DNA from: Escherichia coli | GTDB lineage: Bacteria > Pseudomonadota > Gammaproteobacteria > Enterobacterales > Enterobacteriaceae | Length of the DNA: 64,000 nt | Reading direction: 5' to 3' (one strand) | Assembly: GCF_003334405.1 (NCBI RefSeq) | Contig: NZ_QOWM01000003.1 | Shown here: positions 7,244 through 56,412 of the stretch, piece by piece | Layout of the letters: every line of letters begins with the position of its first letter | How positions within the stretch are numbered: the stretch's first letter is position 1 | Position numbers and translations under genes: made by a program | Notes under the pieces: model-generated | What the model was told of the DNA's origin: nothing | Databases searched by the model: none | The model's input: the letters and a program-made list of their open reading frames with translations, nothing else

Positions 7244-7247
7244 TATA

Positions 7248-7472
7248 TTACTGACGGTAGGCTTGTTTAATTTGCTTAACCGTTTTGGAAAATACTGCAG
7301 CCTGGGTTTCGTCTTCGATCAGCGCAAGCTGTTTTTCCATCTTTAACATCACGCGGCCCGCGTCAGCTTGTCCCATCGCCTGCAGCATCAGCGTCAGCAT
7401 CGCTTTCAGGCAGGAGACTTCATTTGCCAGTTCTTGATTATTCTCGGCAGTAGAAAAATCAGGCGTACTCAT
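7248..7472 (-). CDS. yecF: DUF2594 protein YecF (74 aa)
   Basis: Translation [19 protein letters not shown]... matches YecF at the expected synteny position. Confidence 0.85.
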
Positions 7473-15859: not shown

Positions 15860-16363
15860 TCAATGCAGCTGGTGTGACACGACATTCAGAACATGTTGGT
15901 CGGTCTGCACAGGGCACATACCCGCAAGTTTCGCACTGCGCACTTCATCAAGAATGGTTTGCAGCAACAGACCATCATGCTGCTGTTCTTTTTCCAGATC
16001 GCGCAGGAAATTGACGGTTGAATCATCATTCAGTTCTTTCGCTTCATCGGCTAACTGTGCCAACGTACTAGAACGTTGCTCGTATTCTTCCATCGTTTTT
16101 TGGAACAGTTCTTCCAGAGAGTTCAGTTTTTCACCGGGAACATCAATGGCTTTAACGATGGGGGTAGCGCCGACACTCTTCATAAAGTTAAACATGCGCA
16201 TCATTTGGGTCACATTACTCTGTGCCTGGGCGCGAAGGAAAGTGGCGGTGCCGTTCAGACTCTGTTCAGAACACCAGTTACTCAGGTGAAGGTAGAGATT
16301 GGATGCGTAAAACTCGCGGTTCATTTGAGAGTTGAGTTTGAGAAGCATTCCAGCGGTTGCCAT
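15860..16363 (-). CDS. ftnB: ferritin-like protein FtnB (167 aa)
   Basis: Translation [31 protein letters not shown]... matches FtnB. Confidence 0.93.
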
Positions 16364-17159
16364 ACCTAATATCCTTATATCCAGAAGTGGAGAGGTGCAA
16401 GATAAATCAAAACACCATAATTACTGTTTGCAGAATAATTCCTTTCTGCCGGTCCGAAATGTGATCGTGGAGTCAATTCTGACGATGATCTGAAATAAGA
16501 ATAACGTCTGAACGGGTATAAGAAAATGCTTAAATCATCAAGTTTATATATTTTTACATTTCATTGATGAAATCAATGTAACTGCAATGAATTTTAATGA
16601 TAGTGCTTTTTGTATCTTGTTGATATTAATCAATGAATTTGAATTCATGATGAAGTGATGATTTTATAAAACGTTTTTTCATTTTTGCGAGATGGCTCTC
16701 ATTATACGTGTTCTGTTAATTAATGAGCACAGTGATAATTAATGACGAAATGAATGACGTGCATTTTCCACATCTTTGAGTTGCGGTTATTACACCATTT
16801 CAAAAACTCAACGCCAGGTAATGCGGCCTATTGACTGGTTAAAAAGAAGACATCCCGCATGGGTACCAAAGACAACAAGGATTTCCAGGCTAATCTTATG
16901 GATTAATCTGCTGTGCATTCGACAATTTGTCTGACAAATTGGCTTTCCCTTATGTCTTTTCCCGCTAAATTTATGCACGTTCTCACTGTAATTCTGCGAT
17001 GTGATATTGCTCTCCTATGGAGAATTAATTTCTCGCTAAAACTATGTCAACACAGTCACTTATCTTTTAGTTAAAAGGTAATGCTTTGTTTTCCGATTAA
17101 TTTAACGAATGTCATTCGTTTTTGCCCTACACAAAACGACACTAAAGCTGGAGAGAACC

Positions 17160-19744: not shown

Positions 19745-23100
<3,356 letters not shown>

Positions 23101-23106
23101 GAGCGG

Positions 23107-23535
23107 TTAATCTCCCGTAAGTGGAACTAACAGCACATCGACCTCACTTGAGGCAATAACTCTTTTCGCCGAGCAGGATGCTCGCGAAAAGAAACTGTGA
23201 TTGTGATTACCGCAAATCACCAAATCGAAATGATGCTTGTGACATACTTCCAGAATATGTTCGCTTAACTCACCGTAGGCAATAAACGTCTTGTCAACGG
23301 GATACCCCGCATCCTGAATTAACTTATCAAGAAAGCTTTGCGTTTCTTCCTGCATCACGCTGCGTAAATCTTCAAGCATCGGCGCAGCTAATTGATTGTA
23401 CATTTCCGGGTCGGAAGCGAGAGTAATTAAACTGATGTGTCCCTTTACTGGCCTGGCGATAGATACCGCTTTTGCCAGCAGTTGCTGACTTTCCGGTGTA
23501 ACCGCAACAGCGACAAGAATATTGCTATAGCTCAT
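23107..23535 (-). CDS. uspC: universal stress protein UspC (142 aa)
   Basis: Translation MSYSNILVAVAVTPESQQLLAKAV... matches UspC. Confidence 0.92.
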   Translation of the reverse strand: MSYSNILVAVAVTPESQQLLAKAVSIARPVKGHISLITLASDPEMYNQLAAPMLEDLRSVMQEETQSFLDKLIQDAGYPVDKTFIAYGELSEHILEVCHKHHFDLVICGNHNHSFFSRASCSAKRVIASSEVDVLLVPLTGD

Positions 23536-24037
23536 AACCTGTTCCTTATTCTGTGAACTTCAGGTGACATTAAAGCTTTACTCCTAATGGAGAAACGACG
23601 CAATCCCAACTCGGTCAAACAGGTAAATATTAGTCTGATTATTAGTAAAGACAATTAATCAATCACTCCCGGTGATCATATAATTTCAAATGTAATTATA
23701 AGAAAATAGTGTACTGATTCTCCGCATTAAACAAGTGGTTAATATATGTAAAACATTTCATTAACATTAAGTTGATTGTTGCCTTTCTTTGTATTTAATT
23801 AGTTTGTTGTGCGGTAAGTGTCTGTTTAAAAATAGCTTATCTGGTATTGCATGAAAGTGATTATTTATAGCAGATGATTATTTACGGTGAGTTATTTTGA
23901 CTGTGCGCAACATCCCATTTCGATTATTCCTGTTTCATTTTTGCTTGCTAGCGTAGCGAAAAACTTTTTAACAGATTGAAATACACCCAAAACAAAAGTA
24001 TGACTTATACATTTATGTTAAGTAATTGAGTGTTTTG

Positions 24038-24053
24038 TGTGATCTGCATCACG
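24038..24053. promoter_or_regulatory. CRP binding site of the flhDC class-1 promoter
   Basis: TGTGA-TCTGCA-TCACG, 9/10 to the CRP consensus; centred about 71 bp upstream of the inferred TSS. Confidence 0.6.
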
Positions 24054-24081
24054 CATTATTGAAAATCGCAGCCCCCCTCCG

Positions 24082-24110
24082 TTGTATGTGCGTGTAGTGA
24101 CGAGTACAGT
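24082..24110 (+). promoter_or_regulatory. putative sigma70 promoter of flhDC
   Basis: Weak -35 TTGTAT and -10 TACAGT with 17-nt spacer; inferred TSS near 24117 gives the known ~198-nt flhDC leader. Confidence 0.45.
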
Positions 24111-24314
24111 TGCGTCGATTTAGGAAAAATCTTAGATAAGTGTAAAGACCCATTTCTATTTGTAAGGACATATTAAACCAAAAAGGTGGTTCTGCTTATT
24201 GCAGCTTATCGCAACTATTCTAATGCTAATTATTTTTTACCGGGGCTTCCCGGCGACATCACGGGGTGCGGTGAAACCGCATAAAAATAAAGTTGGTTAT
24301 TCTGGGTGGGAATA

Positions 24315-24665
24315 ATGCATACCTCCGAGTTGCTGAAACACATTTATGACATCAACTTGTCATATTTACTACTTGCACAGCGTTTGATTGTTCAGGACAA
24401 AGCGTCCGCTATGTTTCGTCTCGGCATAAATGAAGAAATGGCGACAACGTTAGCGGCACTGACTCTTCCGCAAATGGTTAAGCTGGCAGAAACCAATCAA
24501 CTGGTTTGTCACTTCCGTTTTGACAGCCACCAGACGATTACTCAGTTGACGCAAGATTCCCGCGTTGACGATCTCCAGCAAATTCATACCGGCATCATGC
24601 TCTCAACACGCTTGCTGAATGATGTTAATCAGCCTGAAGAAGCGCTGCGCAAGAAAAGGGCCTGA
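24315..24665 (+). CDS. flhD: flagellar master regulator FlhD (116 aa)
   Basis: Translation [19 protein letters not shown]...; an alternative GTG start at 24306 would give 119 aa. Confidence 0.93.
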
Positions 24666-24667
24666 TC

Positions 24668-25246
24668 ATGAGTGAAAAAAGCATTGTTCAGGAAGCGCGG
24701 GATATTCAGCTGGCAATGGAATTGATCACCCTGGGCGCTCGTTTGCAGATGCTGGAAAGCGAAACACAGTTAAGTCGCGGACGCCTGATAAAACTTTATA
24801 AAGAACTGCGCGGAAGCCCACCGCCGAAAGGCATGCTGCCATTCTCAACCGACTGGTTTATGACCTGGGAACAAAACGTTCATGCTTCGATGTTCTGTAA
24901 TGCATGGCAGTTTTTACTGAAAACCGGTTTGTGTAATGGCGTCGATGCGGTGATCAAAGCCTACCGTTTATACCTTGAACAGTGCCCACAAGCAGAAGAA
25001 GGACCACTGCTGGCATTAACCCGTGCCTGGACATTGGTGCGGTTTGTTGAAAGTGGATTACTGCAACTTTCCAGCTGCAACTGCTGCGGCGGCAATTTTA
25101 TTACCCACGCTCACCAGCCTGTTGGCAGCTTTGCCTGCAGCTTATGTCAACCGCCATCCCGGGCAGTAAAAAGACGTAAACTTTCCCAGAATCCTGCCGA
25201 TATTATCCCACAACTGCTGGATGAACAGAGAGTACAGGCTGTTTAA
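24668..25246 (+). CDS. flhC: flagellar master regulator FlhC (192 aa)
   Basis: Translation [27 protein letters not shown]... with C-terminal Cys-rich zinc site. Confidence 0.95.
25177..25203 (+). promoter_or_regulatory. sigma28 promoter inside the flhC 3' end (motA / MotR promoter)
   Basis: TAAA(25177-25180)-N15-GCCGATAT(25196-25203), within the last 70 nt of flhC. Confidence 0.6.
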
Positions 25247-25304
25247 CTGATACGGTGAGGCGCAACATTCCAGCAGCGGTAACGACGTACCGCTGCTTTT
25301 TTTT
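25210..25304 (+). ncRNA. motR: probable MotR sRNA (motA 5' leader-derived)
   Basis: Interval between the sigma28 promoter at 25177-25203 and the strong terminator at 25273-25304, about 95 nt; consistent with the described sigma28-dependent MotR sRNA. Confidence 0.4.
25273..25304 (+). terminator. rho-independent terminator after flhC
   Basis: 9-bp stem GCAGCGGTA/TACCGCTGC followed by T8. Confidence 0.75.
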
Positions 25305-25372
25305 GCCCCAATCGCGCGTTAACGCCTGACGACTGAACATCCTGTCATGGTCAACAGTGGAAGGATGATGTC

Positions 25373-26256
25373 GTGCTTATCTTATTAGGTTACCTGGTTG
25401 TTCTCGGTACAGTTTTCGGCGGTTATTTGATGACCGGTGGAAGCCTTGGAGCACTCTATCAACCCGCTGAACTGGTGATTATTGCCGGTGCAGGGATTGG
25501 GTCGTTTATCGTCGGCAATAATGGCAAAGCGATTAAAGGCACGCTGAAGGCGCTGCCGTTGCTGTTTCGTCGCTCCAAATACACCAAAGCAATGTATATG
25601 GATCTGCTGGCTCTGCTTTATCGGTTGATGGCGAAATCGCGGCAGATGGGGATGTTTTCGCTGGAACGTGATATTGAAAATCCCCGTGAGAGCGAGATCT
25701 TCGCCAGCTACCCACGCATCCTCGCGGATAGCGTCATGCTTGATTTTATCGTCGATTATCTGCGCCTGATTATCAGCGGTCACATGAACACCTTCGAAAT
25801 CGAAGCTCTGATGGATGAAGAGATTGAGACGCACGAAAGCGAGGCAGAAGTCCCGGCGAACAGTCTGGCGCTGGTCGGGGACTCACTTCCGGCGTTTGGT
25901 ATTGTTGCGGCTGTAATGGGGGTCGTTCACGCGTTAGGTTCAGCCGATCGTCCTGCCGCCGAGCTGGGTGCGCTTATCGCACATGCGATGGTGGGGACTT
26001 TCCTCGGCATTTTATTGGCTTACGGATTTATTTCCCCATTAGCGACTGTTTTACGTCAGAAAAGCGCCGAAACCAGCAAAATGATGCAGTGCGTCAAAGT
26101 CACTCTGCTTTCTAATCTGAACGGTTACGCACCGCCTATCGCCGTTGAGTTTGGTCGCAAAACGCTCTATTCCAGCGAACGTCCGTCGTTTATTGAACTG
26201 GAAGAGCATGTGCGTGCGGTGAAAAATCCGCAACAACAGACGACAACCGAGGAAGC

Positions 26257-26260
<4 letters not shown>
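25373..26260 (+). CDS. motA: flagellar stator protein MotA (295 aa, GTG start)
   Basis: Translation [30 protein letters not shown]... matches MotA. Confidence 0.95.
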
Positions 26261-29152
<2,892 letters not shown>

Positions 29153-29172
29153 ATGAGTAAAAAGGTAACAAT

Positions 29173-29676
29173 ATGACCGGTATGACGAATGTAACAAAGC
29201 TGGCCAGCGAGCCGTCAGGCCAGGAATTTCTGGTATTTACCCTTGGTGATGAAGAGTACGGTATTGATATCCTGAAAGTGCAGGAGATCCGTGGCTACGA
29301 TCAGGTAACACGGATTGCGAACACGCCAGCGTTTATCAAAGGCGTCACGAATCTGCGCGGCGTTATTGTGCCGATTGTTGACTTACGAATTAAGTTCAGC
29401 CAGGTGGATGTGGACTATAACGACAACACGGTAGTTATCGTCCTGAATCTCGGACAGCGGGTGGTCGGCATCGTGGTTGACGGCGTCTCAGACGTGCTTT
29501 CATTGACGGCGGAGCAAATTCGTCCGGCACCGGAATTTGCCGTGACGCTTTCAACAGAATATCTCACTGGACTGGGCGCACTGGGCGACCGGATGTTGAT
29601 TCTGGTGAACATCGAAAAACTGCTGAACAGCGAAGAGATGGCGCTGTTAGATAGCGCGGCGTCAGAAGTGGCGTAA
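29173..29676 (+). CDS. cheW: chemotaxis coupling protein CheW (167 aa)
   Basis: Translation [34 protein letters not shown]... matches CheW. Confidence 0.95.
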
Positions 29677-29702
29677 TTCTCCCGATTTCCTCAATTGAAA
29701 TG

Positions 29703-29732
29703 AACCCGATGATCTGCGCATCGGGTTTTTTA
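29703..29732 (+). terminator. rho-independent terminator after cheW
   Basis: 7-bp stem CCCGATG/CATCGGG followed by TTTTTT. Confidence 0.7.
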
Positions 29733-29762
29733 TTTCAATTTCGCGGCGGGTGGCATCAGCAA

Positions 29763-29789
29763 TAAAGTTTCCCCCCTCCTTGCCGATAA
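29763..29789 (+). promoter_or_regulatory. sigma28 promoter of the tar-tap-cheRBYZ operon
   Basis: Perfect TAAA(29763-29766)-N15-GCCGATAA(29782-29789), about 30 nt upstream of the tar ATG. Confidence 0.7.
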
Positions 29790-29820
29790 CGAGATCAACT
29801 TGTTTTCAGGAAGGTGCCTT

Positions 29821-31479
29821 ATGATTAACCGTATCCGCGTAGTCACGCTGTTGGTAATGGTGCTGGGGGTATTCGCACTGTTACAGCTTATTTCCGGCAG
29901 TCTGTTTTTTTCTTCCCTTCACCATAGCCAGAAGAGCTTTGTGGTTTCCAATCAATTACGGGAACAGCAGGGCGAGCTGACGTCAACCTGGGATTTAATG
30001 CTGCAAACGCGCATTAACCTGAGTCGTTCAGCGGTACGGATGATGATGGATTCCTCCAATCAACAAAGTAACGCCAAAGTTGAATTGCTCGATAGCGCCA
30101 GGAAAACATTGGCGCAGGCAGCGACGCATTATAAAAAATTCAAAAGCATGGCACCGTTACCTGAAATGGTCGCTACCAGTCGTAATATTGATGAAAAATA
30201 TAAAAACTATTACACAGCGTTAACTGAACTGATTGATTATCTAGATTATGGCAATACTGGAGCTTATTTCGCTCAGCCAACCCAGGGAATGCAAAATGCA
30301 ATGGGCGAAGCGTTTGCTCAGTACGCCCTCAGCAGTGAAAAACTGTATCGCGATATCGTCACTGACAACGCAGATGATTACCGATTTGCCCAGTGGCAAC
30401 TGGCGGTTATCGCGCTGGTGGTATTGATTCTGCTGGTGGCGTGGTACGGCATTCGCCGTATGTTGCTTACTCCGCTGGCAAAAATTATTGCTCACATTCG
30501 CGAAATCGCCGGTGGTAACCTGGCGAATACCCTGACCATTGACGGGCGCAGTGAAATGGGCGACCTGGCGCAGAGCGTTTCACATATGCAACGCTCTTTG
30601 ACTGACACCGTCACTCATGTCCGCGAAGGTTCAGATGCCATCTATGCCGGTACCCGTGAAATTGCGGCGGGCAACACCGATCTTTCCTCCCGTACTGAAC
30701 AGCAGGCATCCGCGCTGGAAGAAACTGCCGCCAGCATGGAGCAGCTCACCGCGACAGTGAAGCAAAACGCCGATAACGCCCGCCAGGCCTCGCAACTGGC
30801 GCAAAGTGCCTCCGACACCGCCCAGCACGGCGGCAAAGTGGTGGATGGCGTAGTGAAAACGATGCATGAGATCGCCGATAGTTCGAAGAAAATTGCCGAC
30901 ATTATCAGCGTTATCGACGGTATTGCCTTCCAGACTAATATCCTCGCGCTGAATGCCGCGGTTGAAGCCGCGCGTGCGGGTGAACAGGGCCGTGGTTTTG
31001 CCGTGGTGGCGGGTGAAGTGCGTAATCTTGCCAGTCGCAGCGCCCAGGCGGCAAAAGAGATCAAAGCCCTCATTGAAGACTCCGTCTCACGCGTTGATAC
31101 CGGTTCGGTGCTGGTCGAAAGCGCCGGGGAAACAATGAACAATATCGTCAATGCTGTCACTCGCGTGACTGACATTATGGGCGAGATTGCATCGGCATCG
31201 GATGAACAGAGCCGTGGCATCGATCAAGTCGCATTGGCGGTTTCGGAAATGGATCGCGTCACGCAACAGAACGCATCGCTGGTGCAGGAATCAGCTGCCG
31301 CCGCCGCTGCGCTGGAAGAACAGGCGAGTCGTTTAACGCAAGCAGTTTCCGCGTTCCGTCTGGCAGCCAGCCCACTCACCAATAAACCGCAAACACCATC
31401 CCGTCCTGCCAGTGAGCAACCACCGGCTCAGCCACGACTGCGAATTGCTGAACAAGATCCAAACTGGGAAACATTTTGA
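29821..31479 (+). CDS. tar: methyl-accepting chemotaxis protein II Tar (553 aa)
   Basis: Recognised N-terminus [21 protein letters not shown]; C-terminal NWETF pentapeptide; track ORF N-extended to 29800. Confidence 0.95.
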
Positions 31480-31524
31480 CGAGTATTTACTAACGCGGTC
31501 ATTGCCGCCTGATGGGGAGCGTTG

Positions 31525-33126
31525 ATGTTTAATCGTATTCGAATTTCGACCACGCTGTTTTTAATTTTGATTCTCTGCGGGATCTTGCAGATTGGCAGTA
31601 ACGGCATGTCTTTTTGGGCATTTCGCGACGATTTGCAACGACTGAATCAGGTCGAGCAGAGCAATCAGCAACGTGCGGCATTAGCGCAAACTCGGGCGGT
31701 AATGTTACAGGCCAGTACCGCGCTGAACAAAGCGGGCACTCTGACGGCACTTAGCTATCCGGCGGATGACATTAAAACGTTGATGACGACGGCGCGCGCC
31801 AGTCTGACGCAATCCACCACGCTGTTTAAAAGTTTTATGGCGATGACTGCGGGCAACGAGCACGTCAGGGGATTGCAAAAAGAGACGGAGAAAAGTTTTG
31901 CCCGCTGGCACAACGATCTCGAACATCAGGCGACCTGGCTTGAAAGTAATCAACTTTCGGATTTCCTCACTGCGCCGGTGCAGGGATCACAGAATGCGTT
32001 TGACGTTAACTTTGAGGCCTGGCAGCTGGAGATCAACCATGTGCTGGAAGCCGCCAGTGCGCAAAGCCAGCGTAACTATCAGATTTCGGCACTGGTGTTT
32101 ATCAGCATGATTATTGTTGCGGCGATCTACATCAGCAGTGCGCTGTGGTGGACGCGCAAGATGATTGTTCAACCACTGGCCATTATCGGTAGCCATTTTG
32201 ACAGCATTGCTGCGGGTAATCTGGCGCGTCCGATTGCGGTATATGGTCGTAATGAGATCACCGCCATTTTTGCCAGTCTGAAGACCATGCAGCAGGCTTT
32301 GCGTGGGACGGTAAGTGATGTGCGTAAGGGAAGCCAGGAGATGCACATTGGTATCGCGGAGATTGTCGCAGGCAATAACGATCTCTCAAGTCGTACCGAA
32401 CAGCAGGCGGCATCGCTGGCACAAACGGCCGCCAGTATGGAGCAATTAACCGCCACGGTAGGGCAAAACGCCGATAACGCACGACAGGCGTCGGAACTGG
32501 CAAAAAATGCCGCGACAACGGCGCAGGCGGGCGGTGTTCAGGTCAGTACCATGACTCACACCATGCAGGAGATCGCCACCAGCTCGCAAAAAATTGGCGA
32601 CATTATCAGCGTTATCGACGGAATTGCTTTCCAGACCAATATTCTGGCCCTGAATGCGGCAGTGGAAGCGGCTCGCGCCGGAGAGCAGGGGCGTGGTTTT
32701 GCGGTAGTGGCAGGTGAAGTGCGCAATCTTGCCAGCCGTAGCGCGCAGGCAGCAAAAGAGATCAAAGGGCTGATCGAAGAGTCAGTCAATCGTGTCCAGC
32801 AGGGTTCGAAACTGGTGAATAACGCCGCCGCGACCATGATCGATATTGTCAGTTCGGTGACCCGCGTGAACGACATTATGGGAGAAATTGCCTCTGCGTC
32901 GGAAGAACAACAGCGGGGGATTGAGCAGGTTGCACAGGCTGTCAGCCAGATGGATCAGGTGACTCAGCAGAACGCCTCGCTGGTAGAAGAAGCGGCGGTG
33001 GCAACGGAACAACTGGCGAATCAGGCCGACCATCTTTCGTCGCGTGTGGCGGTATTTACCCTTGAAGAACATGAAGTAGCACGACATGAGTCGGTGCAGT
33101 TACAAATTGCGCCAGTGGTATCCTGA
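31525..33126 (+). CDS. tap: methyl-accepting chemotaxis protein IV Tap (533 aa)
   Basis: Recognised N-terminus MFNRIRISTTLFLIL; track ORF begins one codon upstream at a TTG. Confidence 0.95.
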   Translation: MFNRIRISTTLFLILILCGILQIGSNGMSFWAFRDDLQRLNQVEQSNQQRAALAQTRAVMLQASTALNKAGTLTALSYPADDIKTLMTTARASLTQSTTLFKSFMAMTAGNEHVRGLQKETEKSFARWHNDLEHQATWLESNQLSDFLTAPVQGSQNAFDVNFEAWQLEINHVLEAASAQSQRNYQISALVFISMIIVAAIYISSALWWTRKMIVQPLAIIGSHFDSIAAGNLARPIAVYGRNEITAIFASLKTMQQALRGTVSDVRKGSQEMHIGIAEIVAGNNDLSSRTEQQAASLAQTAASMEQLTATVGQNADNARQASELAKNAATTAQAGGVQVSTMTHTMQEIATSSQKIGDIISVIDGIAFQTNILALNAAVEAARAGEQGRGFAVVAGEVRNLASRSAQAAKEIKGLIEESVNRVQQGSKLVNNAAATMIDIVSSVTRVNDIMGEIASASEEQQRGIEQVAQAVSQMDQVTQQNASLVEEAAVATEQLANQADHLSSRVAVFTLEEHEVARHESVQLQIAPVVS

Positions 33127-33144
33127 AGTGATTGAGAAGGCGCT

Positions 33145-34005
33145 ATGACTTCATCTCTGCCCTGTGGGCAAACGTCTTTATTGTTACAGATGACCGAGCG
33201 CCTGGCGCTTTCCGACGCGCATTTTCGGCGGATAAGTCAATTGATCTATCAACGAGCCGGGATCGTTCTGGCTGACCATAAACGCGACATGGTTTACAAC
33301 CGACTGGTTCGTCGTTTGCGTTCGCTGGGACTGACGGATTTCGGTCATTATCTGAACTTGCTGGAATCTAATCAGCACAGCGGTGAGTGGCAGGCGTTTA
33401 TCAATTCGCTGACCACGAATCTGACGGCATTTTTCCGTGAGGCACATCATTTCCCTCTGCTCGCGGATCACGCACGTCGCCGTTCTGGCGAGTATCGCGT
33501 ATGGAGCGCGGCGGCTTCGACCGGCGAAGAGCCGTACAGCATTGCGATGACGCTGGCTGACACATTGGGCACCGCGCCCGGACGCTGGAAAGTGTTTGCC
33601 AGTGATATCGACACCGAAGTGCTGGAAAAAGCCAGAAGCGGTATCTATCGCCATGAAGAGTTGAAAAACCTGACGCCGCAGCAACTGCAACGGTATTTCA
33701 TGCGAGGGACGGGGCCGCATGAAGGGCTGGTACGCGTGCGTCAGGAGCTGGCGAACTATGTTGATTTTGCCCCGCTGAATCTACTGGCGAAACAGTACAC
33801 CGTGCCGGGGCCGTTTGATGCGATCTTCTGTCGTAACGTCATGATCTACTTCGATCAAACTACCCAGCAGGAGATTTTGCGCCGCTTTGTTCCGCTCCTT
33901 AAACCCGACGGATTGCTGTTTGCGGGTCACTCTGAAAACTTTAGCCACCTTGAGCGCCGCTTCACGCTGCGTGGTCAGACGGTGTATGCGCTAAGTAAGG
34001 ATTAA
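33145..34005 (+). CDS. cheR: chemotaxis methyltransferase CheR (286 aa)
   Basis: Full-length match to CheR. Confidence 0.95.
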
Positions 34006-34007
34006 CG

Positions 34008-35461
<1,454 letters not shown>

Positions 35462-35471
35462 GGATGCGACT

Positions 35472-36116
35472 ATGATGCAACCATCAATCAAACCTGCTGA
35501 CGAGCATTCAGCTGGCGATATCATTGCGCGCATCGGCAGCCTGACGCGTATGCTGCGCGACAGTTTGCGGGAACTGGGGCTGGATCAGGCCATTGCCGAA
35601 GCGGCGGAAGCCATCCCCGATGCGCGCGATCGTTTGTACTATGTTGTGCAGATGACCGCCCAGGCTGCGGAGCGGGCGCTGAACAGTGTTGAGGCGTCAC
35701 AACCGCATCAGGATCAAATGGAGAAATCAGCAAAAGCGTTAACCCAACGTTGGGATGACTGGTTTGCCGATCCGATTGACCTTGCCGACGCCCGTGAACT
35801 GGTAACAGATACACGACAATTTCTGGCAGATGTACCCGCGCATACCAGCTTTACTAACGCGCAACTGCTGGAAATCATGATGGCGCAGGATTTTCAGGAT
35901 CTCACCGGGCAGGTCATTAAGCGGATGATGGATGTCATTCAGGAGATCGAACGCCAGTTGCTGATGGTGCTGTTGGAAAACATCCCGGAACAGGAGTCGC
36001 GTCCAAAACGTGAAAACCAGAGTTTGCTTAATGGACCTCAGGTCGATACCAGCAAAGCCGGTGTGGTAGCCAGTCAGGATCAGGTGGACGATTTGTTGGA
36101 TAGTCTTGGATTTTGA
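35472..36116 (+). CDS. cheZ: CheY-P phosphatase CheZ (214 aa)
   Basis: Recognised N-terminus [22 protein letters not shown]; track ORF N-extended to 35442. Confidence 0.93.
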
Positions 36117-36120
36117 TTTG

Positions 36121-36190
36121 TATTGCCTGATGTGGCGTGACCACGTCATATCAGGCGGTCTGATAAGGCGATGACGCCGCATCCGACAAA
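36121..36190. repeat. REP (BIME) elements between cheZ and flhB
   Basis: GCCTGATG...CATATCAGGC palindrome and CTGATAAGGCGATGACGCCGCATCCGAC, typical REP sequences. Confidence 0.6.
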
Positions 36191-36317
36191 CGCACACTAT
36201 GCTTGATGTGTGGCAGCAAAAGCCCTAAATCCCGCCTGTTTTGCCCCTTACTCAAACCATTGAACGCTTTGCGCTCTGGCATCATTCACGCTTAATACTC
36301 TTTCCAGGATTGGCGAC

Positions 36318-37466
36318 GTGTCTGACGAGAGCGACGACAAAACAGAAGCCCCCACACCTCACCGACTAGAAAAAGCGCGGGAAGAGGGGCAAATCCCGCG
36401 TTCCCGTGAACTGACCTCACTGCTGATTTTGCTGGTGGGCGTTAGTGTTATCTGGTTTGGCGGTGTGTCGCTGGCCCGTCGATTGTCGGGCATGCTCTCC
36501 GCTGGGCTGCATTTTGATCACAGTATTATCAATGACCCGAATCTGATCCTCGGGCAGATTATTCTGCTGATCAGAGAAGCCATGCTGGCGCTGCTGCCGC
36601 TGATTAGCGGCGTGGTGCTGGTGGCGCTCATTTCTCCGGTCATGCTGGGAGGGCTGGTATTTAGCGGCAAATCCTTGCAGCCGAAGTGTTCCAAACTCAA
36701 CCCGCTACCGGGCATTAAACGGATGTTCTCGGCTCAGACTGGCGCGGAGTTGCTTAAAGCAATTTTGAAAACCATCCTGGTTGGCAGCGTGACGGGGTTT
36801 TTTCTCTGGCATCACTGGCCGCAGATGATGCGCTTGATGGCCGAGTCTCCGATTACCGCCATGGGTAATGCGATGGATTTGGTAGGGCTATGCGCACTGC
36901 TGGTGGTGCTTGGTGTCATTCCAATGGTGGGATTTGACGTCTTTTTCCAAATATTCAGCCACCTGAAAAAGCTGCGTATGTCACGGCAGGATATTCGTGA
37001 TGAGTTCAAACAAAGCGAAGGTGACCCTCATGTTAAAGGGCGGATCCGTCAGATGCAGCGAGCTGCTGCACGGCGTCGGATGATGGCCGATGTGCCGAAA
37101 GCGGATGTCATTGTCAATAACCCGACCCACTATTCGGTAGCGTTGCAGTATGACGAAAACAAAATGAGCGCACCGAAAGTGGTCGCTAAAGGTGCAGGGC
37201 TGGTCGCGCTGCGCATTCGTGAAATTGGCGCTGAAAATAACGTCCCGACGCTTGAAGCGCCGCCGCTGGCGCGAGCGCTGTATCGACATGCGGAGATTGG
37301 TCAACAAATCCCGGGTCAACTGTACGCCGCGGTGGCGGAAGTGCTGGCCTGGGTCTGGCAACTGAAACGCTGGCGTCTGGCTGGTGGACAGCGCCCTGTA
37401 CAACCTACTCATCTTCCGGTGCCGGAAGCCCTGGATTTTATTAACGAGAAACCGACCCATGAGTAA
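36318..37466 (+). CDS. flhB: flagellar export apparatus protein FlhB (382 aa, GTG start)
   Basis: Translation MSDESDDKTEAPTPHRLEKAREEGQIPRSRELTS... with NPTH autocleavage motif. Confidence 0.95.
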   Translation: MSDESDDKTEAPTPHRLEKAREEGQIPRSRELTSLLILLVGVSVIWFGGVSLARRLSGMLSAGLHFDHSIINDPNLILGQIILLIREAMLALLPLISGVVLVALISPVMLGGLVFSGKSLQPKCSKLNPLPGIKRMFSAQTGAELLKAILKTILVGSVTGFFLWHHWPQMMRLMAESPITAMGNAMDLVGLCALLVVLGVIPMVGFDVFFQIFSHLKKLRMSRQDIRDEFKQSEGDPHVKGRIRQMQRAAARRRMMADVPKADVIVNNPTHYSVALQYDENKMSAPKVVAKGAGLVALRIREIGAENNVPTLEAPPLARALYRHAEIGQQIPGQLYAAVAEVLAWVWQLKRWRLAGGQRPVQPTHLPVPEALDFINEKPTHE

Positions 37467-39537
37467 TCTGGCCGCGATGCTGCGCCTGCCCGCAAACCTG
37501 AAATCGACACAATGGCAGATCCTTGCCGGACCGATTTTGATCCTGTTGATCTTGTCGATGATGGTGCTGCCACTGCCCGCATTCATACTCGACCTGTTGT
37601 TTACCTTCAATATTGCCTTGTCGATCATGGTGTTGCTGGTGGCGATGTTTACCCAGCGCACGCTTGAGTTTGCTGCGTTTCCGACCATTCTGTTGTTTAC
37701 CACGCTGTTGCGTCTGGCACTTAACGTGGCTTCAACCCGTATCATTTTAATGGAAGGGCATACCGGCGCGGCGGCGGCAGGGAAGGTGGTCGAAGCGTTC
37801 GGTCACTTCCTCGTTGGTGGCAATTTCGCTATCGGTATCGTGGTGTTTGTCATTCTCGTGATCATCAACTTTATGGTCATTACCAAAGGTGCCGGGCGTA
37901 TCGCAGAAGTGGGTGCGCGCTTTGTTCTCGATGGTATGCCGGGTAAGCAGATGGCGATTGACGCCGACCTTAACGCCGGATTGATTGGTGAAGATGAGGC
38001 GAAAAAACGCCGCTCCGAAGTGACTCAGGAAGCCGATTTTTACGGCTCAATGGACGGGGCAAGTAAGTTTGTTCGCGGCGATGCCATCGCCGGGATCCTC
38101 ATCATGGTCATTAACATTGTCGGCGGGTTGCTGGTCGGCGTGCTGCAACATGGCATGAGCATGGGACACGCGGCGGAAAGTTATACGCTATTGACCATTG
38201 GCGACGGTCTGGTGGCACAAATTCCGGCGCTGGTGATTTCTACCGCCGCGGGGGTCATCGTTACGCGTGTCAGCACCGATCAGGATGTTGGCGAGCAGAT
38301 GGTGAATCAGCTTTTCAGTAACCCAAGCGTTATGTTGTTAAGCGCCGCCGTGCTCGGTTTACTCGGCCTGGTGCCTGGAATGCCGAACCTGGTATTTTTG
38401 CTGTTCACTGCCGGATTGCTCGGGCTGGCCTGGTGGATACGCGGACGCGAACAAAAAGCGCCTGCCGAACCCAAACCGGTAAAAATGGCAGAGAATAATA
38501 CCGTTGTCGAAGCGACGTGGAACGATGTACAACTGGAAGATTCTCTGGGAATGGAAGTGGGTTATCGACTGATCCCGATGGTCGATTTCCAGCAGGATGG
38601 TGAGTTGTTGGGCCGTATACGCAGTATCCGCAAGAAATTTGCCCAGGAGATGGGATTTCTGCCGCCAGTGGTGCACATTCGCGACAATATGGATCTGCAA
38701 CCTGCCCGCTATCGCATTTTGATGAAAGGCGTGGAGATTGGCAGTGGTGATGCTTATCCGGGGCGCTGGCTGGCGATTAACCCTGGAACCGCTGCCGGGA
38801 CGTTACCTGGTGAGGCGACCGTCGATCCGGCATTTGGCCTGAATGCTATCTGGATTGAAAGTGCGCTAAAAGAACAGGCGCAGATTCAGGGGTACACAGT
38901 GGTTGAGGCCAGCACGGTGGTAGCAACGCATCTTAACCACCTCATTAGCCAGCATGCCGCAGAGCTGTTTGGTCGTCAGGAGGCGCAACAGCTGTTGGAT
39001 CGCGTCGCCCAGGAGATGCCAAAGCTGACGGAAGATCTCGTTCCTGGCGTCGTCACGCTCACCACACTGCATAAAGTGCTGCAAAATCTCCTCGATGAAA
39101 AAGTACCGATTCGCGATATGCGCACCATTCTCGAAACGCTGGCGGAACATGCGCCCATCCAAAGCGATCCACATGAATTAACCGCCGTCGTGCGCGTGGC
39201 GTTGGGACGGGCGATTACCCAGCAGTGGTTTCCTGGCAAAGATGAAGTCCATGTTATTGGCCTCGATACACCGCTGGAACGTTTGTTACTACAGGCGCTG
39301 CAGGGCGGGGGAGGACTGGAGCCAGGGCTGGCGGATCGTTTACTGGCGCAAACTCAGGAAGCGCTATCCCGTCAGGAGATGCTGGGTGCGCCGCCAGTAT
39401 TGTTGGTGAACCACGCGCTGCGACCATTATTGTCTCGCTTCCTGCGCCGCAGCTTGCCGCAGTTAGTGGTCCTGTCGAATCTGGAACTGTCTGATAACCG
39501 ACATATCCGCATGACGGCGACAATTGGCGGCAAATAA
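37459..39537 (+). CDS. flhA: flagellar export apparatus protein FlhA (692 aa)
   Basis: Recognised N-terminus MSNLAAMLRLPANLKSTQWQILAG; overlaps flhB by 8 nt; track ORF N-extended to 37384. Confidence 0.95.
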   Translation: MSNLAAMLRLPANLKSTQWQILAGPILILLILSMMVLPLPAFILDLLFTFNIALSIMVLLVAMFTQRTLEFAAFPTILLFTTLLRLALNVASTRIILMEGHTGAAAAGKVVEAFGHFLVGGNFAIGIVVFVILVIINFMVITKGAGRIAEVGARFVLDGMPGKQMAIDADLNAGLIGEDEAKKRRSEVTQEADFYGSMDGASKFVRGDAIAGILIMVINIVGGLLVGVLQHGMSMGHAAESYTLLTIGDGLVAQIPALVISTAAGVIVTRVSTDQDVGEQMVNQLFSNPSVMLLSAAVLGLLGLVPGMPNLVFLLFTAGLLGLAWWIRGREQKAPAEPKPVKMAENNTVVEATWNDVQLEDSLGMEVGYRLIPMVDFQQDGELLGRIRSIRKKFAQEMGFLPPVVHIRDNMDLQPARYRILMKGVEIGSGDAYPGRWLAINPGTAAGTLPGEATVDPAFGLNAIWIESALKEQAQIQGYTVVEASTVVATHLNHLISQHAAELFGRQEAQQLLDRVAQEMPKLTEDLVPGVVTLTTLHKVLQNLLDEKVPIRDMRTILETLAEHAPIQSDPHELTAVVRVALGRAITQQWFPGKDEVHVIGLDTPLERLLLQALQGGGGLEPGLADRLLAQTQEALSRQEMLGAPPVLLVNHALRPLLSRFLRRSLPQLVVLSNLELSDNRHIRMTATIGGK

Positions 39538-39929
39538 TGAGAACCTTATTAGCAATATTATTGTTTCCGCTGCTGGTGCAAGCCGCCGGGGAGGGGATGT
39601 GGCAGGCAAGTAGTGTAGGAATTACGCTAAATCATCGCGGTGAGTCGATGTCGTCTGCGCCTCTTTCTACGCGACAACCTGCTTCAGGATTGATGACGCT
39701 GGTAGCGTGGCGTTATCAGCTTATCGGCCCGACACCTTCAGGACTGCGGGTTCGCTTGTGTTCGCAATCTCGTTGTGTCGAATTAGAGGGGCAGAGCGGA
39801 ACCACCGTGGCCTTTTCCGGTATAGCGGCAGCAGAACCGTTGCGATTTATCTGGGAAGTGCCAGGCGGTGGGCGGTTAATTCCACCGCTAAAGGTACAAC
39901 GTAATGAAGTGATTGTGAATTATCGCTGA
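39537..39929 (+). CDS. flhE: flagellar protein FlhE (130 aa)
   Basis: Translation MRTLLAILLFPLLVQAAGEGMWQASSVGITLNHRGE... with signal peptide; start overlaps the flhA stop. Confidence 0.9.
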   Translation: MRTLLAILLFPLLVQAAGEGMWQASSVGITLNHRGESMSSAPLSTRQPASGLMTLVAWRYQLIGPTPSGLRVRLCSQSRCVELEGQSGTTVAFSGIAAAEPLRFIWEVPGGGRLIPPLKVQRNEVIVNYR

Positions 39930-40048
39930 AGGACAAAAAAATTACGCGCTCGCGAGTATGTTTAATAACTCAGTGAAAAAGGCTCGATGTCTTGTTGCAA
40001 TTATTTATCAGGAATAGCTTGCAACAAAACATGCCAAAAAGATGTGAA

Positions 40049-40558
40049 TTATCCTCTTGTCAAAGGGCTTGGATAAAAATCTTCAGAGTTACGGTATAGC
40101 TGCAACTGGCGAGTTCGCGTATTGGTCTGTATGATCATACATGAGAGCCATTCTGATTCAGAATAAGGGTCACTTAAATCCTGAACGTCCTCATTTGAAA
40201 GGATTAATTCACATTCTTTGTCCCTAAAATCCAGCCAGGCTCGCTGTGATTTTTTAAGCAAGTTAAGTTGTTCGGTATCAGGTTTTTTTACACCTGTGCG
40301 TGGCACTTGTTCTATATAACGATAAGCTTCACCATAGGCTTTATTTAATTGCGCATCGACGAGATTGTATTCTTGTCGCAGGCATGATTTGATCACGTTA
40401 ACGTCAGTATCATCATCTGAATTTTTTTGCCAACAATCTTTGATGGCTGAAATGTCATGGTCGTTTACTATAACCGTATCTTCTGCGTAAGCCTGGCAAG
40501 AGATAATGCCTAATGTTAATACAAGAAATTTAAACACTGCGGTATTCCTTAAATTCAA
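40049..40558 (-). CDS. yecT: secreted DUF1311 (lysozyme-inhibitor LprI-like) protein YecT (169 aa)
   Basis: Signal peptide MNLRNTAVFKFLVLTLGIISCQAYA; markedly AT-rich coding sequence. Confidence 0.8.
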   Translation of the reverse strand: MNLRNTAVFKFLVLTLGIISCQAYAEDTVIVNDHDISAIKDCWQKNSDDDTDVNVIKSCLRQEYNLVDAQLNKAYGEAYRYIEQVPRTGVKKPDTEQLNLLKKSQRAWLDFRDKECELILSNEDVQDLSDPYSESEWLSCMIIQTNTRTRQLQLYRNSEDFYPSPLTRG

Positions 40559-40713
40559 CCGTTATCGTTTCCCTGGGGCCGGATATTACGCTTCTGGCCT
40601 CTTATCCAACAGTGAGAAAACAATGGCATGTCCATTTTCAGAATACATTTAGATGGCAATAAAAAAGCCTGATCGGCTAACCCTGATCAGGCTTCACTCT
40701 CACGAAAAATCGA

Positions 40714-42447
40714 TTACATACGCTCTACAGTCTCAATACCCAGCGTATCCAGACCCAGCTTCAGCGTCTTCGCCGTCAGTTGTGCCAGTTTTAGACGGCT
40801 GTTACGCACTTCTTCGTTTTCTGCGCTGAGGATCGGGCAGTGCTCGTAGAAGCCAGAGAACAGACCGGCCAGATCGTACAGGTAAGCACACATTACATGC
40901 GGCGTGCCTTCACGGGCAACCACGGTGAGGGTTTCTTCAAACTGCAGCAGGCGAGCTGCCAGTTGCGCTTCACGATCTTCACGGATGATAACCGGAGCTG
41001 CAGCCAGTTGCTCTTCGTCAATTTCTGCTTTACGGAACACGGACAATACACGCGTGTATGCATACTGCATGTATGGCGCGGTATTACCCTCAAACGCCAG
41101 CATGTTGTCCCAGTCGAAGATGTAGTCCGTGGTGCGGTTTTTGGAGAGATCCGCATATTTCACCGCACCAATACCAACCGCGTTAGCCAGTTTTTCCAGC
41201 TCGTCGGCTGGCATATCCGGGTTCTTTTCTGCCACCAGACGGCGTGCACGTTCCAGGGCTTCATCCAGCAGATCGGCCAGTTTCACTGTACCACCCGCGC
41301 GGGTTTTGAACGGTTTGCCGTCTTTACCCAGCATCATGCCGAACATGTGGTGTTCCAGCGGTACGGATTCCGGTACATAGCCTGCTTTACGGACGATCGC
41401 CCATGCCTGCATCAGGTGTTGATGCTGACGGGAGTCGATGTAATACAGCACGCGATCGGCATGCAGTGTTTCATAACGATATTTCGCACAGGCGATATCA
41501 GTGGTGGTGTAGAGATAGCCGCCATCTTTCTTCTGAATGATCACGCCCATCGGTTCGCCTTCCTTGTTTTTAAACTCATCAAGGAATACGACGGTCGCCC
41601 CTTCGCTTTCTACTGCCAGACCTTTGGCTTTGAGATCCGCCACAATTCCTGGCAGCATCGGGTTGTAGAGGCTTTCGCCCATCACGTCATCACGGGTCAG
41701 CGTCACGTTGAGACGATCGTAGGTGATCTGGTTCTGCGTCATGGTGATGTCGACCAGTTTGCGCCACATCTCGCGGAAATATTCGTCACCGCTTTGCAGT
41801 TTTACCACGTAGTTACGTGCGCGCTCGGCGAACTCTTCATCTTCATCGTAATGCTTTTTCGCATCGCGGTAGAAACCTTCAAGGTCAGCCAGCTCCATTT
41901 CACCGGCGTTTTCCTGCTGCTGCTTTTCCAGCCATGCAATCAGCATACCGAACTGAGTGCCCCAGTCGCCGACGTGGTTTGCGCGAATCACTTTGTGACC
42001 GAGGAACTCCAGAGTACGCACTGCTGCGTCACCAATAATGGTAGAGCGCAGGTGACCGACATGCATCTCTTTCGCCACGTTTGGCGCAGAGTAGTCAACC
42101 ACAATGGTCTGTTTTTCTGGCGTAGCAACACCGAGACGATCGGACGCCAGCGCCTGCTGAACATGTTCAGCCAGGAATGCCGGATCAAGGAAAATGTTGA
42201 TAAAGCCTGGACCGGCGATCTCAACTTTGCTGGCGATACCGTTAAGATCCAGATGAGTCAGCACCTGCTCTGCTAATTGTCGCGGTGCCATACCCAGTTT
42301 TTTAGCAACTGCCATCATGCCGTTAGCCTGATAGTCGCCGAACTGAACTTTTGCTGACTGACGAACCTGCGGTTCGCAATCCGCAGGCGCGCCTGCCGCA
42401 ATCATGGCCTGACGGACTTTTTCTGAGAGAAGAGCCTGAATATTCAC
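40714..42447 (-). CDS. argS: arginine--tRNA ligase ArgS (577 aa, GTG start)
   Basis: Class I motifs HVGH and KMSK-like region; translation [21 protein letters not shown]... matches ArgS. Confidence 0.97.
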
Positions 42448-43233: not shown

Positions 43234-44069
<836 letters not shown>

Positions 44070-44376
44070 TCCCTGAACAGTATAAAAAACGAACGATAAC
44101 CGTGATCTGTTGAGCGGGTGACAGTGCGCATAGCGTTGTGCTAAAAATATTGTATATATTCACATTAATTATGGGATTTAAATTACTAAAACTGATAAAT
44201 ATATATTCTAAATAGCAACTGGGTTATTCCTTAGCAATTAATGATTACATTGTAATAAATCATATTCTTTATCGATTGTTTCAGGCAGTGTTGTGCCTAA
44301 TTATGCAAGCGGTTAATTCGTTGTATATTTAATTATACAATGATTTCGGTGTCCAGTAATTTAATTAGAGGAATCT

Positions 44377-45477
44377 ATGCGAGGGAAAAAACGCATTGGG
44401 TTATTGTTTTTGCTGATAGCGGTTGTGGTTGGTGGCGGCGGGTTATTGCTGGCGCAAAAAGCCTTACATAAAACGTCGGATACAGCATTTTGCCTTTCCT
44501 GCCACTCGATGAGTAAACCTTTTGAGGAATATCAGGGAACTGTCCACTTTTCGAACCAGAAAGGGATACGTGCGGAATGTGCCGATTGCCATATTCCAAA
44601 GTCAGGGATGGATTATTTATTTGCTAAATTAAAGGCATCTAAAGATATTTATCATGAATTTGTTAGCGGCAAAATAGACAGTGACGATAAGTTCGAAGCT
44701 CATCGCCAGGAAATGGCCGAAACAGTATGGAAAGAATTAAAAGCCACTGACTCTGCAACGTGCCGTAGTTGCCATTCTTTTGATGCCATGGATATTGCCT
44801 CGCAAAGTGAATCTGCGCAGAAAATGCATAACAAAGCACAAAAGGACAGCGAAACCTGTATCGATTGTCATAAAGGCATTGCCCATTTTCCGCCAGAAAT
44901 AAAAATGGATGACAACGCGGCGCATGAGCTGGAAAGTCAGGCCGCTACTTCAGTTACTAATGGCGCACATATTTATCCTTTCAAAACTTCTCACATAGGC
45001 GAGCTGGCTACCGTGAATCCTGGAACCGATCTCACCGTCGTTGATGCCAGTGGCAAACAGCCGATCGTTCTGTTGCAGGGTTATCAAATGCAGGGCAGTG
45101 AAAACACGCTCTACCTGGCGGCAGGTCAACGGCTGGCGCTAGCCACATTAAGTGAAGAAGGTATCAAGGCGCTCACTGTAAACGGGGAATGGCAGGCTGA
45201 CGAATACGGCAATCAATGGCGTCAGGCGTCTTTACAGGGTGCGCTTACCGATCCCGCATTAGCGGACCGTAAACCGCTATGGCAATACGCTGAAAAACTT
45301 GACGATACCTATTGCGCTGGTTGTCATGCCCCTATTGCCGCCGACCATTACACCGTCAATGCGTGGCCGTCCATTGCCAAAGGAATGGGGGCACGAACCA
45401 GCATGAGCGAAAACGAACTGGACATTTTAACGCGGTATTTCCAGTACAACGCCAAAGATATTACCGAGAAACAGTGA
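44377..45477 (+). CDS. torY: NapC/NirT-family pentahaem c-type cytochrome TorY (366 aa)
   Basis: Multiple CxxCH haem-binding motifs (CLSCH, CADCH, CRSCH, CIDCH, CAGCH); RBS AGAGG; AT-rich upstream region. Confidence 0.92.
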
Positions 45478-55655: not shown

Positions 55656-56258
55656 TTATACCGCCTCGGTCAGTTCCGGCTGAGGCGTTTCCACTCCCTC
55701 CGCATGAATCAACACCAAACCCGGATGATGCCACAAACTGGCTGGCGTGACGGTTTTACGCTCCCACGGAATAGAACCCAGGAACCAGAATTTCCAGAAA
55801 GTGAGTTTTGCATTCGGATTGCTATTTAACAATTCTCCAAACGTCTCTATTTCACCCACCGGAATACATAGCGCTTCTTTATAAATATCAAAAACAAATT
55901 TTGAACAGAACTGGCGCGAAGATTCGTATTTAAAACCGGTGTGGTAAAGTTTGCGTAGCCGGGAGGGAACCTGTTCAACAATTCGTTGTTTTTGTCGTTC
56001 TGTCAGCCCAGCGTCTAATCGCTTTATAGCATAGCGTTGATTAGACGAACGTTTAATAAAACGAGATAGCGTGGTGATGGTTGAAAGGGGAACCCGGCTT
56101 TCTGCAACCAGGAAGTCTTCACCGTTATGACCGATAATGATCCCGACGTGATTACTCCAGCAATTTGATGCAGCTGATATTTGACCAAATAAGGCAGCAC
56201 CTATACATGTAAAGACGATATCTCCAATTTCATATTCAGCAGGGTAATTAATATTCAC
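55656..56258 (-). CDS. yebB: DUF830 protein YebB (200 aa from a GTG start; longer 233-aa frame possible)
   Basis: Recognised N-terminus (M)[24 protein letters not shown]; AT-rich gene; the track ORF extends to 56357. Confidence 0.8.
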
Positions 56259-56412
56259 GTTGTCATTCCATTGAAATAGATACAAATATACGTAATAGCA
56301 TAAAAAATTTATTTTTTCAGGAGGCGCAATGTATATTTTTATTACGCATTTCTTCACTGAATATGTAATATTAAAATATTTGCTTCCAATATAACCTGTA
56401 GAATAAATTATA

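Follow-up and report, generated by a model that had tools for sequence, protein, structure and literature searches.

What does yecT do, and how did it come to lie between flhE and argS? The gene is a y-gene of Escherichia coli K-12 whose function is not assigned. We analyzed it within a 64,000-nucleotide stretch of E. coli DNA (assembly GCF_003334405.1, contig NZ_QOWM01000003.1; hereafter, the window), in which the gene order is flhBAE, yecT, argS, yecM, cutC. A first-pass annotation, made from the letters of this DNA alone, had described the interval between flhE and argS as an AT-rich cassette and had proposed that it carries an old gene, horizontally acquired or silenced by H-NS, for a secreted DUF1311 protein without assigned function. 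These proposals were borne out by the comparisons reported below, which also suggest a source for the gene and a role for its product.

yecT is very probably an old foreign accessory cassette: its composition is that of an outlier, many E. coli genomes have an empty site in its place, the subfamily to which its product belongs is patchily distributed, and a divergent allele occupies the same site in Escherichia fergusonii. Homologues of YecT close the vgrG islands of type VI secretion system (T6SS) loci, behind effectors whose recognizable toxin domains cleave peptidoglycan, and other proteins with a DUF1311 domain serve as immunity proteins. We give a probability of about 0.5 to the full statement that yecT derives from such an island and encodes an orphan immunity protein of the periplasm.

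YecT-like genes close the vgrG islands of five T6SS loci

Among 1.84 billion representative proteins, only 17 matched at an E value of 1e-10 or below, most of them fragments of YecT. When 100,044 species, each represented by one genome, were scanned by pattern, four loci emerged (Escherichia whittamii, Escherichia sp. E1V33, Mangrovibacter phragmitis, and a distant one in Microvirga). Cluster membership adds E. fergusonii, Yersinia intermedia and Y. kristensenii, Gibbsiella dentisursi, Cedecea davisae, Pantoea dispersa, Enterobacter spp., and a rare Salmonella record.

In five independent T6SS loci, the YecT-like gene stands last in a vgrG island, and its product is 62 to 66% identical to YecT over the mature protein. 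These loci belong to Gibbsiella, Yersinia intermedia, Mangrovibacter, a Citrobacter-like contig, and a Pantoea/Enterobacter-like contig, and run in the order ClpV, VgrG, a large effector, small genes, the YecT-like gene, PAAR, a protein of 386 to 392 amino acids, TssM, TssA, TssF, and TssG. The effectors, typical polymorphic toxins, have in common an N-terminal region of ~540 amino acids that is 50 to 88% identical across loci, followed by C-terminal domains that are exchanged from locus to locus: a PF11860 muramidase, a weak match to pesticin, a CHAP domain, and an endolysin-like domain, with no match for the Yersinia C terminus. Each C-terminal domain that can be recognized is a peptidoglycan hydrolase. 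The gene coupled to the toxin varies with the toxin, encoding an LprI protein in one locus and an unrelated protein in another. On our locus contigs, the effector family lies at 6179-8425 (L024), 2755-5040 (L009), 3993-6302 (L019), 917-3820 (L007), and 5731-7894 (L014).

Immunity proteins with a DUF1311 domain have been described. In enterohemorrhagic E. coli (EHEC), Etsi4 (Z0245) rescues cells from the periplasmic toxicity of Etse4, a T6SS effector that targets the cell wall (PMC12981562). Like YecT, Etsi4 is a small DUF1311 protein, and the YecT profile matches it with an hhalign probability of 92% (E = 5.9e-7, 116 columns, with the four cysteines aligned); its gene (ECs_0213) lies directly downstream of the effector gene in a T6SS cluster, whereas yecT has no adjoining effector or T6SS gene. 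The T6SS1 hcp island of Pantoea agglomerans pv. betae contains two genes for LprI proteins with signal peptides that have been read as orphan immunity genes, predicted to act against lysozyme-like effectors (PMC9796082). The T6SS-linked YecT-like genes follow the same logic, being kept without a toxin. The likeness is one of description, and the Pantoea genes still lie within a T6SS cluster, whereas yecT is stranded between housekeeping and flagellar genes and its carriers may have no T6SS. DUF1311 is also listed among immunity domains in a study of WHIX (PMC12135965). By analogy with these precedents, and given island homologues that sit behind peptidoglycan-hydrolase effectors, immunity would be the most likely role for YecT.

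Two other products of these islands were considered as partners of the YecT-like protein and set aside. The protein of 386 to 392 amino acids, always encoded between PAAR and TssM (L024 9808-10968, L009 6383-7543, L007 6822-7982, L019 9856-11034), is 87 to 95% identical across Enterobacter, Pantoea, Cedecea, and Shimwellia, has N-terminal hydrophobic segments, and found no match in Pfam, NCBIfam, or PDB sequence searches. It was dropped as a cognate effector because its conservation across genera and its hydrophobic segments make it look like a membrane accessory component. An open reading frame (ORF) of 190 amino acids directly upstream of the Mangrovibacter YecT-like gene, considered as a toxin fragment, showed no similarity and no Pfam match. 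The gaps upstream of the YecT-like genes contain no toxin-gene remnants, only known neighboring ORFs.

YecT is an LprI-domain protein with a predicted export signal

YecT matches the Pfam family LprI (PF07007, DUF1311) over the whole model (positions 1 to 106 of 106; E = 1.6e-17, 64 bits), as the first-pass annotation had assigned it. Its N terminus, MFKFLVLTLGIISCQAYA followed by ED, reads as an 18-amino-acid signal peptide, in keeping with the predicted secretion, and the A-x-A cleavage site (AYA before ED) is kept in all homologues. Cys14, which follows IIS in E. coli and VIS in E. fergusonii, fits a lipobox; all other members of the subfamily have no cysteine there. A soluble periplasmic protein and a lipoprotein are both compatible with these residues.

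An AlphaFold2 model built with 51 homologues (predicted local distance difference test score of 91, predicted template modeling [TM] score of 0.85) comprises three long helices and a short N-terminal one. Its only significant neighbor in a fold search of the PDB is 3GI7 (probability of 1.00; TM score of 0.81 to 0.84, by target), the DUF1311 protein PP0307 of Pseudomonas putida, which has the same helical fold (root mean square deviation, 1.7 to 2.5 Å) at 16% identity. A PDB sequence search with YecT gave no meaningful match. Conservation across the 51 homologues is complete for C35 and 90% or more for C52, C109, and C133.

The first-pass annotation had also taken over the database description of the family, lysozyme inhibitor. 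Membership in the LprI family stands, but the description is a family name only, and YecT lacks the MliC domain: in a Pfam scan for MliC (PF09864) or any other domain, LprI alone was significant. The name is probably misleading. That YecT is a periplasmic inhibitor of host (animal) lysozyme, as annotated, is quite improbable. Family membership, the predicted export signal, and the association of E. coli with the gut speak for it, as does Mycobacterium tuberculosis LprI (Rv1541c), the namesake of PF07007, which inhibits lysozyme (Sethi et al. 2016, as cited in PMC7933661). The latter shares DUF1311 with YecT but is a lipoprotein with an MliC domain, and this domain is sufficient for inhibition (PMC7933661), whereas YecT is LprI only. 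ScwA (SL1344_0490) of Salmonella Typhimurium, a periplasmic protein whose four cysteines correspond to those of YecT and form two DsbA-dependent disulfides, is the only LprI-only protein to have been tested; a scwA mutant has no lysozyme phenotype, and according to the ScwA authors the Pfam label is without experimental support (PMC7933661). yecT, moreover, is silent in ordinary culture and absent from many host-adapted strains, such as ATCC 25922. E. coli also has dedicated lysozyme inhibitors (Ivy, MliC, and PliG), which we count against this role.

The cassette is foreign in composition and variable within E. coli

The AT-rich interval is the exact gap between two stop codons, that of flhE at 39929 on the plus strand and that of argS at 40714 on the minus strand. 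Sliding GC is 0.39 to 0.41 within it and 0.53 to 0.58 in flhA, flhE, and argS. The yecT coding sequence (CDS) has the lowest GC (0.389) and the lowest third-position GC (GC3, 0.337) of the 62 ORFs in the window, the remaining 61 averaging 0.512 (standard deviation [SD], 0.028) and 0.542 (SD, 0.051), which places yecT at z scores of -4.4 and -4.0. Its codon index, with the window's own genes as the reference, is 0.60 against a mean of 0.70 (z = -2.1), and only 3% of 784-bp segments are equally AT-rich. Both GC and codon usage fall outside the normal range of the neighboring genes, and no other gene of the window departs as far in composition as yecT does. Further AT-rich stretches lie at 44000-44900, 55656-56357, 23011-23911, 15861-16651, and 6891-7431; GC is 0.32 to 0.42 directly past cutC, and the ORF at 55656-56357 has a GC of 0.417 and a GC3 of 0.389.

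All genes of the YecT subfamily are AT-rich (GC, 0.35 to 0.40; GC3, 0.28 to 0.38) in hosts with a GC of 0.50 to 0.56, so the AT-richness of yecT characterizes its gene lineage as a whole. This composition has been kept without amelioration even across the saturated distance between E. coli and E. fergusonii.

A check on presence and absence, which the first-pass annotation had called for, found the cassette variable within E. coli and patchy elsewhere. The interval is present in 3,642 of 5,426 complete E. coli genomes (67%), nearly always at 95% identity or more, and 1,786 genomes (33%) have a clean empty site in which flhE and argS are only 52 bp apart; the two counts add up to 5,428, two above the number of genomes, and the sequenced set is biased and not a population. 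At least 80% of the yecT CDS is found at 95% identity or more in 3,561 genomes. Occupied genomes include K-12, E. coli C, O157, O103, and O111; K-12 TG1 and E. coli C are among the genomes whose CDS is 100% identical to that in the window. Among the empty-site genomes is ATCC 25922, which we take to be of phylogroup B2. The 52-bp spacer holds one strong hairpin (AAAAAAGCCGATGTC...GACATCGGC), different from that of occupied genomes.

E. whittamii and Escherichia sp. E1V33 carry yecT at the same site, with 96 to 97% protein identity. In E. fergusonii, the gene at this site is only ~59% identical in the mature protein. The E. fergusonii upstream region nevertheless shares with that of E. coli a block, TTTC(A/G)GAATACATTTA, and the argS terminator, GCCTGATC...GATCAGGC. 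Both alleles therefore go back to a single occupied site, whose occupation began before the species split or is at least as old as the divergent E. fergusonii flh region. When the E. fergusonii locus (L022 3015-8051) is compared with positions 37459-42447 of the window, synonymous divergence (dS) is 1.2 to 1.6 in flhA and flhE versus 0.5 in argS, which indicates a recombination boundary at or near yecT and a different ancestry for the flagellar region.

The sole repeats at the ends of the cassette are A-runs (39934-39942 and 40661-40666), which, read as sequence, would fit insertion into a terminator A-run and microhomology deletion alike. Integrase, tRNA, insertion sequence (IS), and long direct or inverted terminal repeats were looked for as hallmarks of mobility at the cassette and were not found, and a search of phages gave no match to yecT. 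Four close matches in a plasmid collection were rejected as evidence of plasmid carriage, as they look like chromosomal sequence filed as plasmid; the other matches in that collection are relatives with less than 40% identity from other genera.

yecT has been damaged independently in some lineages, as expected of a dispensable gene. A rare third allele in two genomes (HH97; L002 2985-3148) retains a 67-bp internal piece of yecT (equivalent to 40429-40495), joined in HH97 to a C-rich segment of ~75 bp that has no counterpart in the other alleles. E. coli N25 has an IS1 inside the cassette, an observation from one strain, and truncated YecT forms of 96 to 133 amino acids are common in Shigella flexneri records and occur in others too. 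yecT also marks one end of a recurrent motility deletion: [yecT-flhD] deletions of ~16.2 kb (window positions ~24000-40700) recur in K-12 and are selected in the mouse gut, and such deletions have been reported after FLP expression in a Keio strain.

Is yecT then a functionless relic, the silenced and decaying leftover of an old insertion? Its absence from one third of genomes, the recurrent lesions, its low expression without BglJ, and the selection of [yecT-flhD] deletions in the mouse gut are what such a relic would lead one to expect. Opposed to this are ratios of nonsynonymous to synonymous divergence (dN/dS) of 0.1 to 0.2 at every depth: 0.22 against O157, 0.10 against both E. whittamii and E1V33, and 0.17 against E. 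fergusonii, the last in a saturated comparison. A near-complete CDS persists in the thousands of genomes counted above, the terminator stem and the upstream block are conserved, and a dedicated activator, BglJ-RcsB, has a predicted site there. yecT is intact and under purifying selection, and a relic is highly improbable.

yecT is reported to be partly repressed by H-NS/StpA and activated by BglJ-RcsB

The suspected influence of H-NS agrees with published partial repression of yecT by H-NS and StpA (PMC3950696). In the same study, a fragment of the argS-yecT intergenic region carrying the yecT promoter was activated by BglJ-RcsB, a BglJ-RcsB site was predicted for yecT, and the rise in yecT mRNA was moderate in an hns stpA bglJ mutant and strong when BglJ was constitutive (PMC3950696). 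The motif TATTCTGA upstream of yecT is a candidate for this site, judged by its resemblance to the core wwTTCykA, and its E. fergusonii counterpart, TATTCCGA, likewise fits the core. A scan for the high-affinity H-NS motif TCGATAAATT found one match with two mismatches in the cassette and no enrichment. In EHEC O26, yecT was 2.1-fold up in ground beef with microbiota compared with beef without (PMC5543532).

Is yecT also called upon under attack? Rcs reportedly contributes to surviving T6SS attack (Hersch et al. 2020). An Rcs-based link between yecT and such attack is only suggestive, because activation by BglJ-RcsB is reported to be independent of RcsB phosphorylation (PMC3950696). We tentatively consider a more specific possibility, that YecT is an inducible stand-alone defense gene captured from T6SS vgrG islands of other Enterobacterales, silenced by H-NS, switched on through RcsB under envelope attack, and protective for E. 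coli without a T6SS, such as K-12, against an injected, widespread family of lysozyme-like toxins. An arms race with these toxins would then account for the variable presence of yecT and for the divergence of the E. fergusonii allele.

Is YecT an orphan immunity protein or a regulator?

Taken step by step, the reading that we put at about 0.5 runs as follows. yecT would have been acquired long ago from an AT-rich pool of effector/immunity islands in Enterobacterales T6SS and would have retained its composition. YecT would be exported via Sec and oxidized by DsbA, giving a rigid helical bundle in the periplasm. The gene is partly repressed by H-NS/StpA and switched on by BglJ-RcsB. From its homologues, we infer that YecT binds, as a stoichiometric inhibitor, a peptidoglycan-glycosidase (lysozyme-like) toxin domain that rivals inject into the periplasm; the carrier cell would be without the toxin, making yecT an orphan immunity gene.

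Several observations weigh against this reading. The neighbors of yecT are flhE and argS, with no adjoining effector, so that yecT is at most an orphan immunity gene. Etsi4, the immunity precedent, is a remote relative with only 21 to 23% identity to YecT. Within the T6SS islands, the YecT-like gene stays constant while the toxins change, is never the translationally coupled gene, and follows a gap of 140 to 900 bp, a placement that also fits an accessory periplasmic factor with no part in immunity. The closest homologues outside Escherichia (65 to 70%) are on two contigs that are not T6SS loci (L010 and L011; host GC, 0.35), and Ignatzschineria homologues (40 to 43%) are likewise outside T6SS loci. 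Finally, the direction of change at the flhE-argS site could have been either way, the empty allele being ancestral or a deletion. The constant, uncoupled position is also what would be expected of an old immunity gene that stayed in place as toxin after toxin was replaced.

YecT could instead act in the periplasm to regulate peptidoglycan hydrolases of its own cell, or envelope signaling, in the manner of ScwA or UmoC, and might assist the insertion of flagella or of the T6SS; we regard this as rather unlikely. ScwA, itself a periplasmic LprI-domain protein, controls the levels of MltD and other hydrolases (PMC7933661). It resembles YecT in having an LprI domain without MliC, a low GC (43%), four cysteines, and a patchy distribution in enterobacteria, but it is 275 amino acids long with the LprI domain at the C terminus, is encoded at another locus, and falls outside the YecT subfamily. 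UmoC of Proteus mirabilis is a regulator tied to flagellar biogenesis. Its family (NCBIfam NF041434), like YecT one of small exported proteins linked to flagellar genes, has detectable homology to YecT (E = 5.5e-9), but the score of 36.1 bits is below the 120-bit cutoff for membership and reflects generic DUF1311 similarity, as other, unrelated LprI proteins match equally, one of 124 amino acids among them.

A regulator would also suit the fixed position of the YecT-like gene beside PAAR and TssM whatever the upstream toxin, the place of yecT beside flhBAE in E. coli, E. whittamii, and E1V33 and of the divergent allele in E. fergusonii, and the activation through RcsB. Yet one third of E. coli genomes do without yecT, and the YecT-like gene is not universal in T6SS of this type. 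In a Rahnella T6SS with this gene order, the position is taken by an unrelated protein (hhalign probability, 0.2%); the cluster of the VgrG of this type numbers 280 members, and that of the linked YecT-like protein only 14; and in the species-representative scan the subfamily occurred in only one genus among those with the 386-amino-acid marker.

Relation to published work

The gene yecT, its family, its low expression, and its control by H-NS and BglJ-RcsB were already known; of the 19 papers found to mention yecT, none connects it with the T6SS. Judged by the literature that could be searched, three results are new: the counts of occupied and clean empty sites in E. coli, the strongly divergent allele that E. 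fergusonii has at this site, and the residence of the nearest YecT homologues in T6SS islands. The island homologues suggest for an uncharacterized K-12 gene a function that is specific, can be tested, and belongs to a known kind, which a specialist would find plausible rather than surprising. If the immunity reading is true, a chromosomal, regulated orphan immunity gene helps commensal E. coli without the matching weapon to survive contact-dependent attack, which would explain why yecT was retained in some lineages and lost in others. If it is false, yecT stays an ordinary silenced accessory gene.

Anatomy of the cassette and flanking features

yecT forms a self-contained accessory unit between the convergent flhBAE and argS transcription units, in which promoter region, CDS, and intrinsic terminator are all its own (Table 1). 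The GTG start pairs with the ATG of the E. fergusonii allele in the alignment; a program-made ORF list gives a longer form of 169 amino acids from a TTG at 40558. The 5' spacer of 176 bp contains the argS terminator, yecV, and the yecT control region, and the 3' spacer of 119 bp contains an inverted repeat.

Table 1. Positions of yecT, its flanking genes, and signals in the window (strand: +, plus; -, minus;., none given)
Feature	Position	Strand	Description	Basis
flhE	39537..39929	+	Left flank, last gene of flhBAE, convergent with yecT; GC 0.527	ORF and RefSeq annotation
Whole AT-rich cassette	39930..40713	.	GC 0.394	
yecT intrinsic terminator	39975..40035	-	Outer GGC/GCC pairs, 14-bp stem, UUUUU	Folding and conservation
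yecT CDS	40049..40537	-	162 amino acids, GTG start	RefSeq annotation agrees
Putative Shine-Dalgarno AAGGAA	40545..40550	-	7 nt upstream of the yecT GTG	Reading of the sequence
Candidate sigma-70 promoter	40583..40609	-	-35 TTGGAT 40609-40604, spacer of 15 nt (short), -10 TAATAT 40588-40583	Reading of the sequence
yecV	40628..40672	+	Annotated ORF of 14 amino acids, MSIFRIHLDGNKKA; antisense to the yecT upstream region	RefSeq annotation
TATTCTGA	40638..40645	-	BglJ-RcsB core-like motif (wwTTCykA)	Motif from PMC3950696; putative placement
argS intrinsic terminator	40659..40694	-	Arms 40665-40674 and 40685-40694, then U6	dG -22, z -3.6
argS	40714..42447	-	Right flank, upstream of yecT on the same strand	ORF and RefSeq annotation

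The 9-bp inverted repeat that had been reported between flhE and yecT is real (TTGTTGCAA at 39992-40000 and TTGCAACAA at 40019-40027), and its arms are longer than claimed, extending to 14 nt (39987-40000 and 40019-40032) with 93% complementarity. The minus-strand RNA of the repeat has a folding energy of -21 kcal/mol (z = -4.5; no sequence among 200 shuffles was as stable), and UUUUU follows it. Because the stable fold is on the yecT strand with UUUUU after it, the repeat is the intrinsic terminator of yecT itself, and an insertion scar was rejected. In O157, E. whittamii, and Escherichia sp. E1V33 the stem pairs perfectly, and the single difference in the window makes a G-U pair. The argS hairpin is of a type common to E. 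whittamii, E1V33, and E. fergusonii; empty-site genomes have another hairpin. A consensus scan for promoters and terminators returned nothing above shuffled expectation; it missed both terminators, whose loops exceed 8 nt, and did not recover the candidate sigma-70 promoter.

yecV overlaps the BglJ-RcsB-like motif and the 5' arm of the argS terminator, and its frame is not kept in E. fergusonii. Published work also places a binding site for sigma-54 within argS, 1,397 bp upstream of yecT. An Rfam scan of 39000-41500 at a permissive threshold gave a single match, to isrA inside argS (40762-40889, minus strand), which is at chance level (E = 0.31; 19 bits against a gathering score of 51) and almost certainly fortuitous. 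A perfect 11-bp direct repeat, TGTGAATTATC, occurs in the last codons of flhE (39914-39924) and across the yecT stop (40043-40053), 129 bp apart; by a rough estimate, ~0.1 such repeats are expected by chance in the region.

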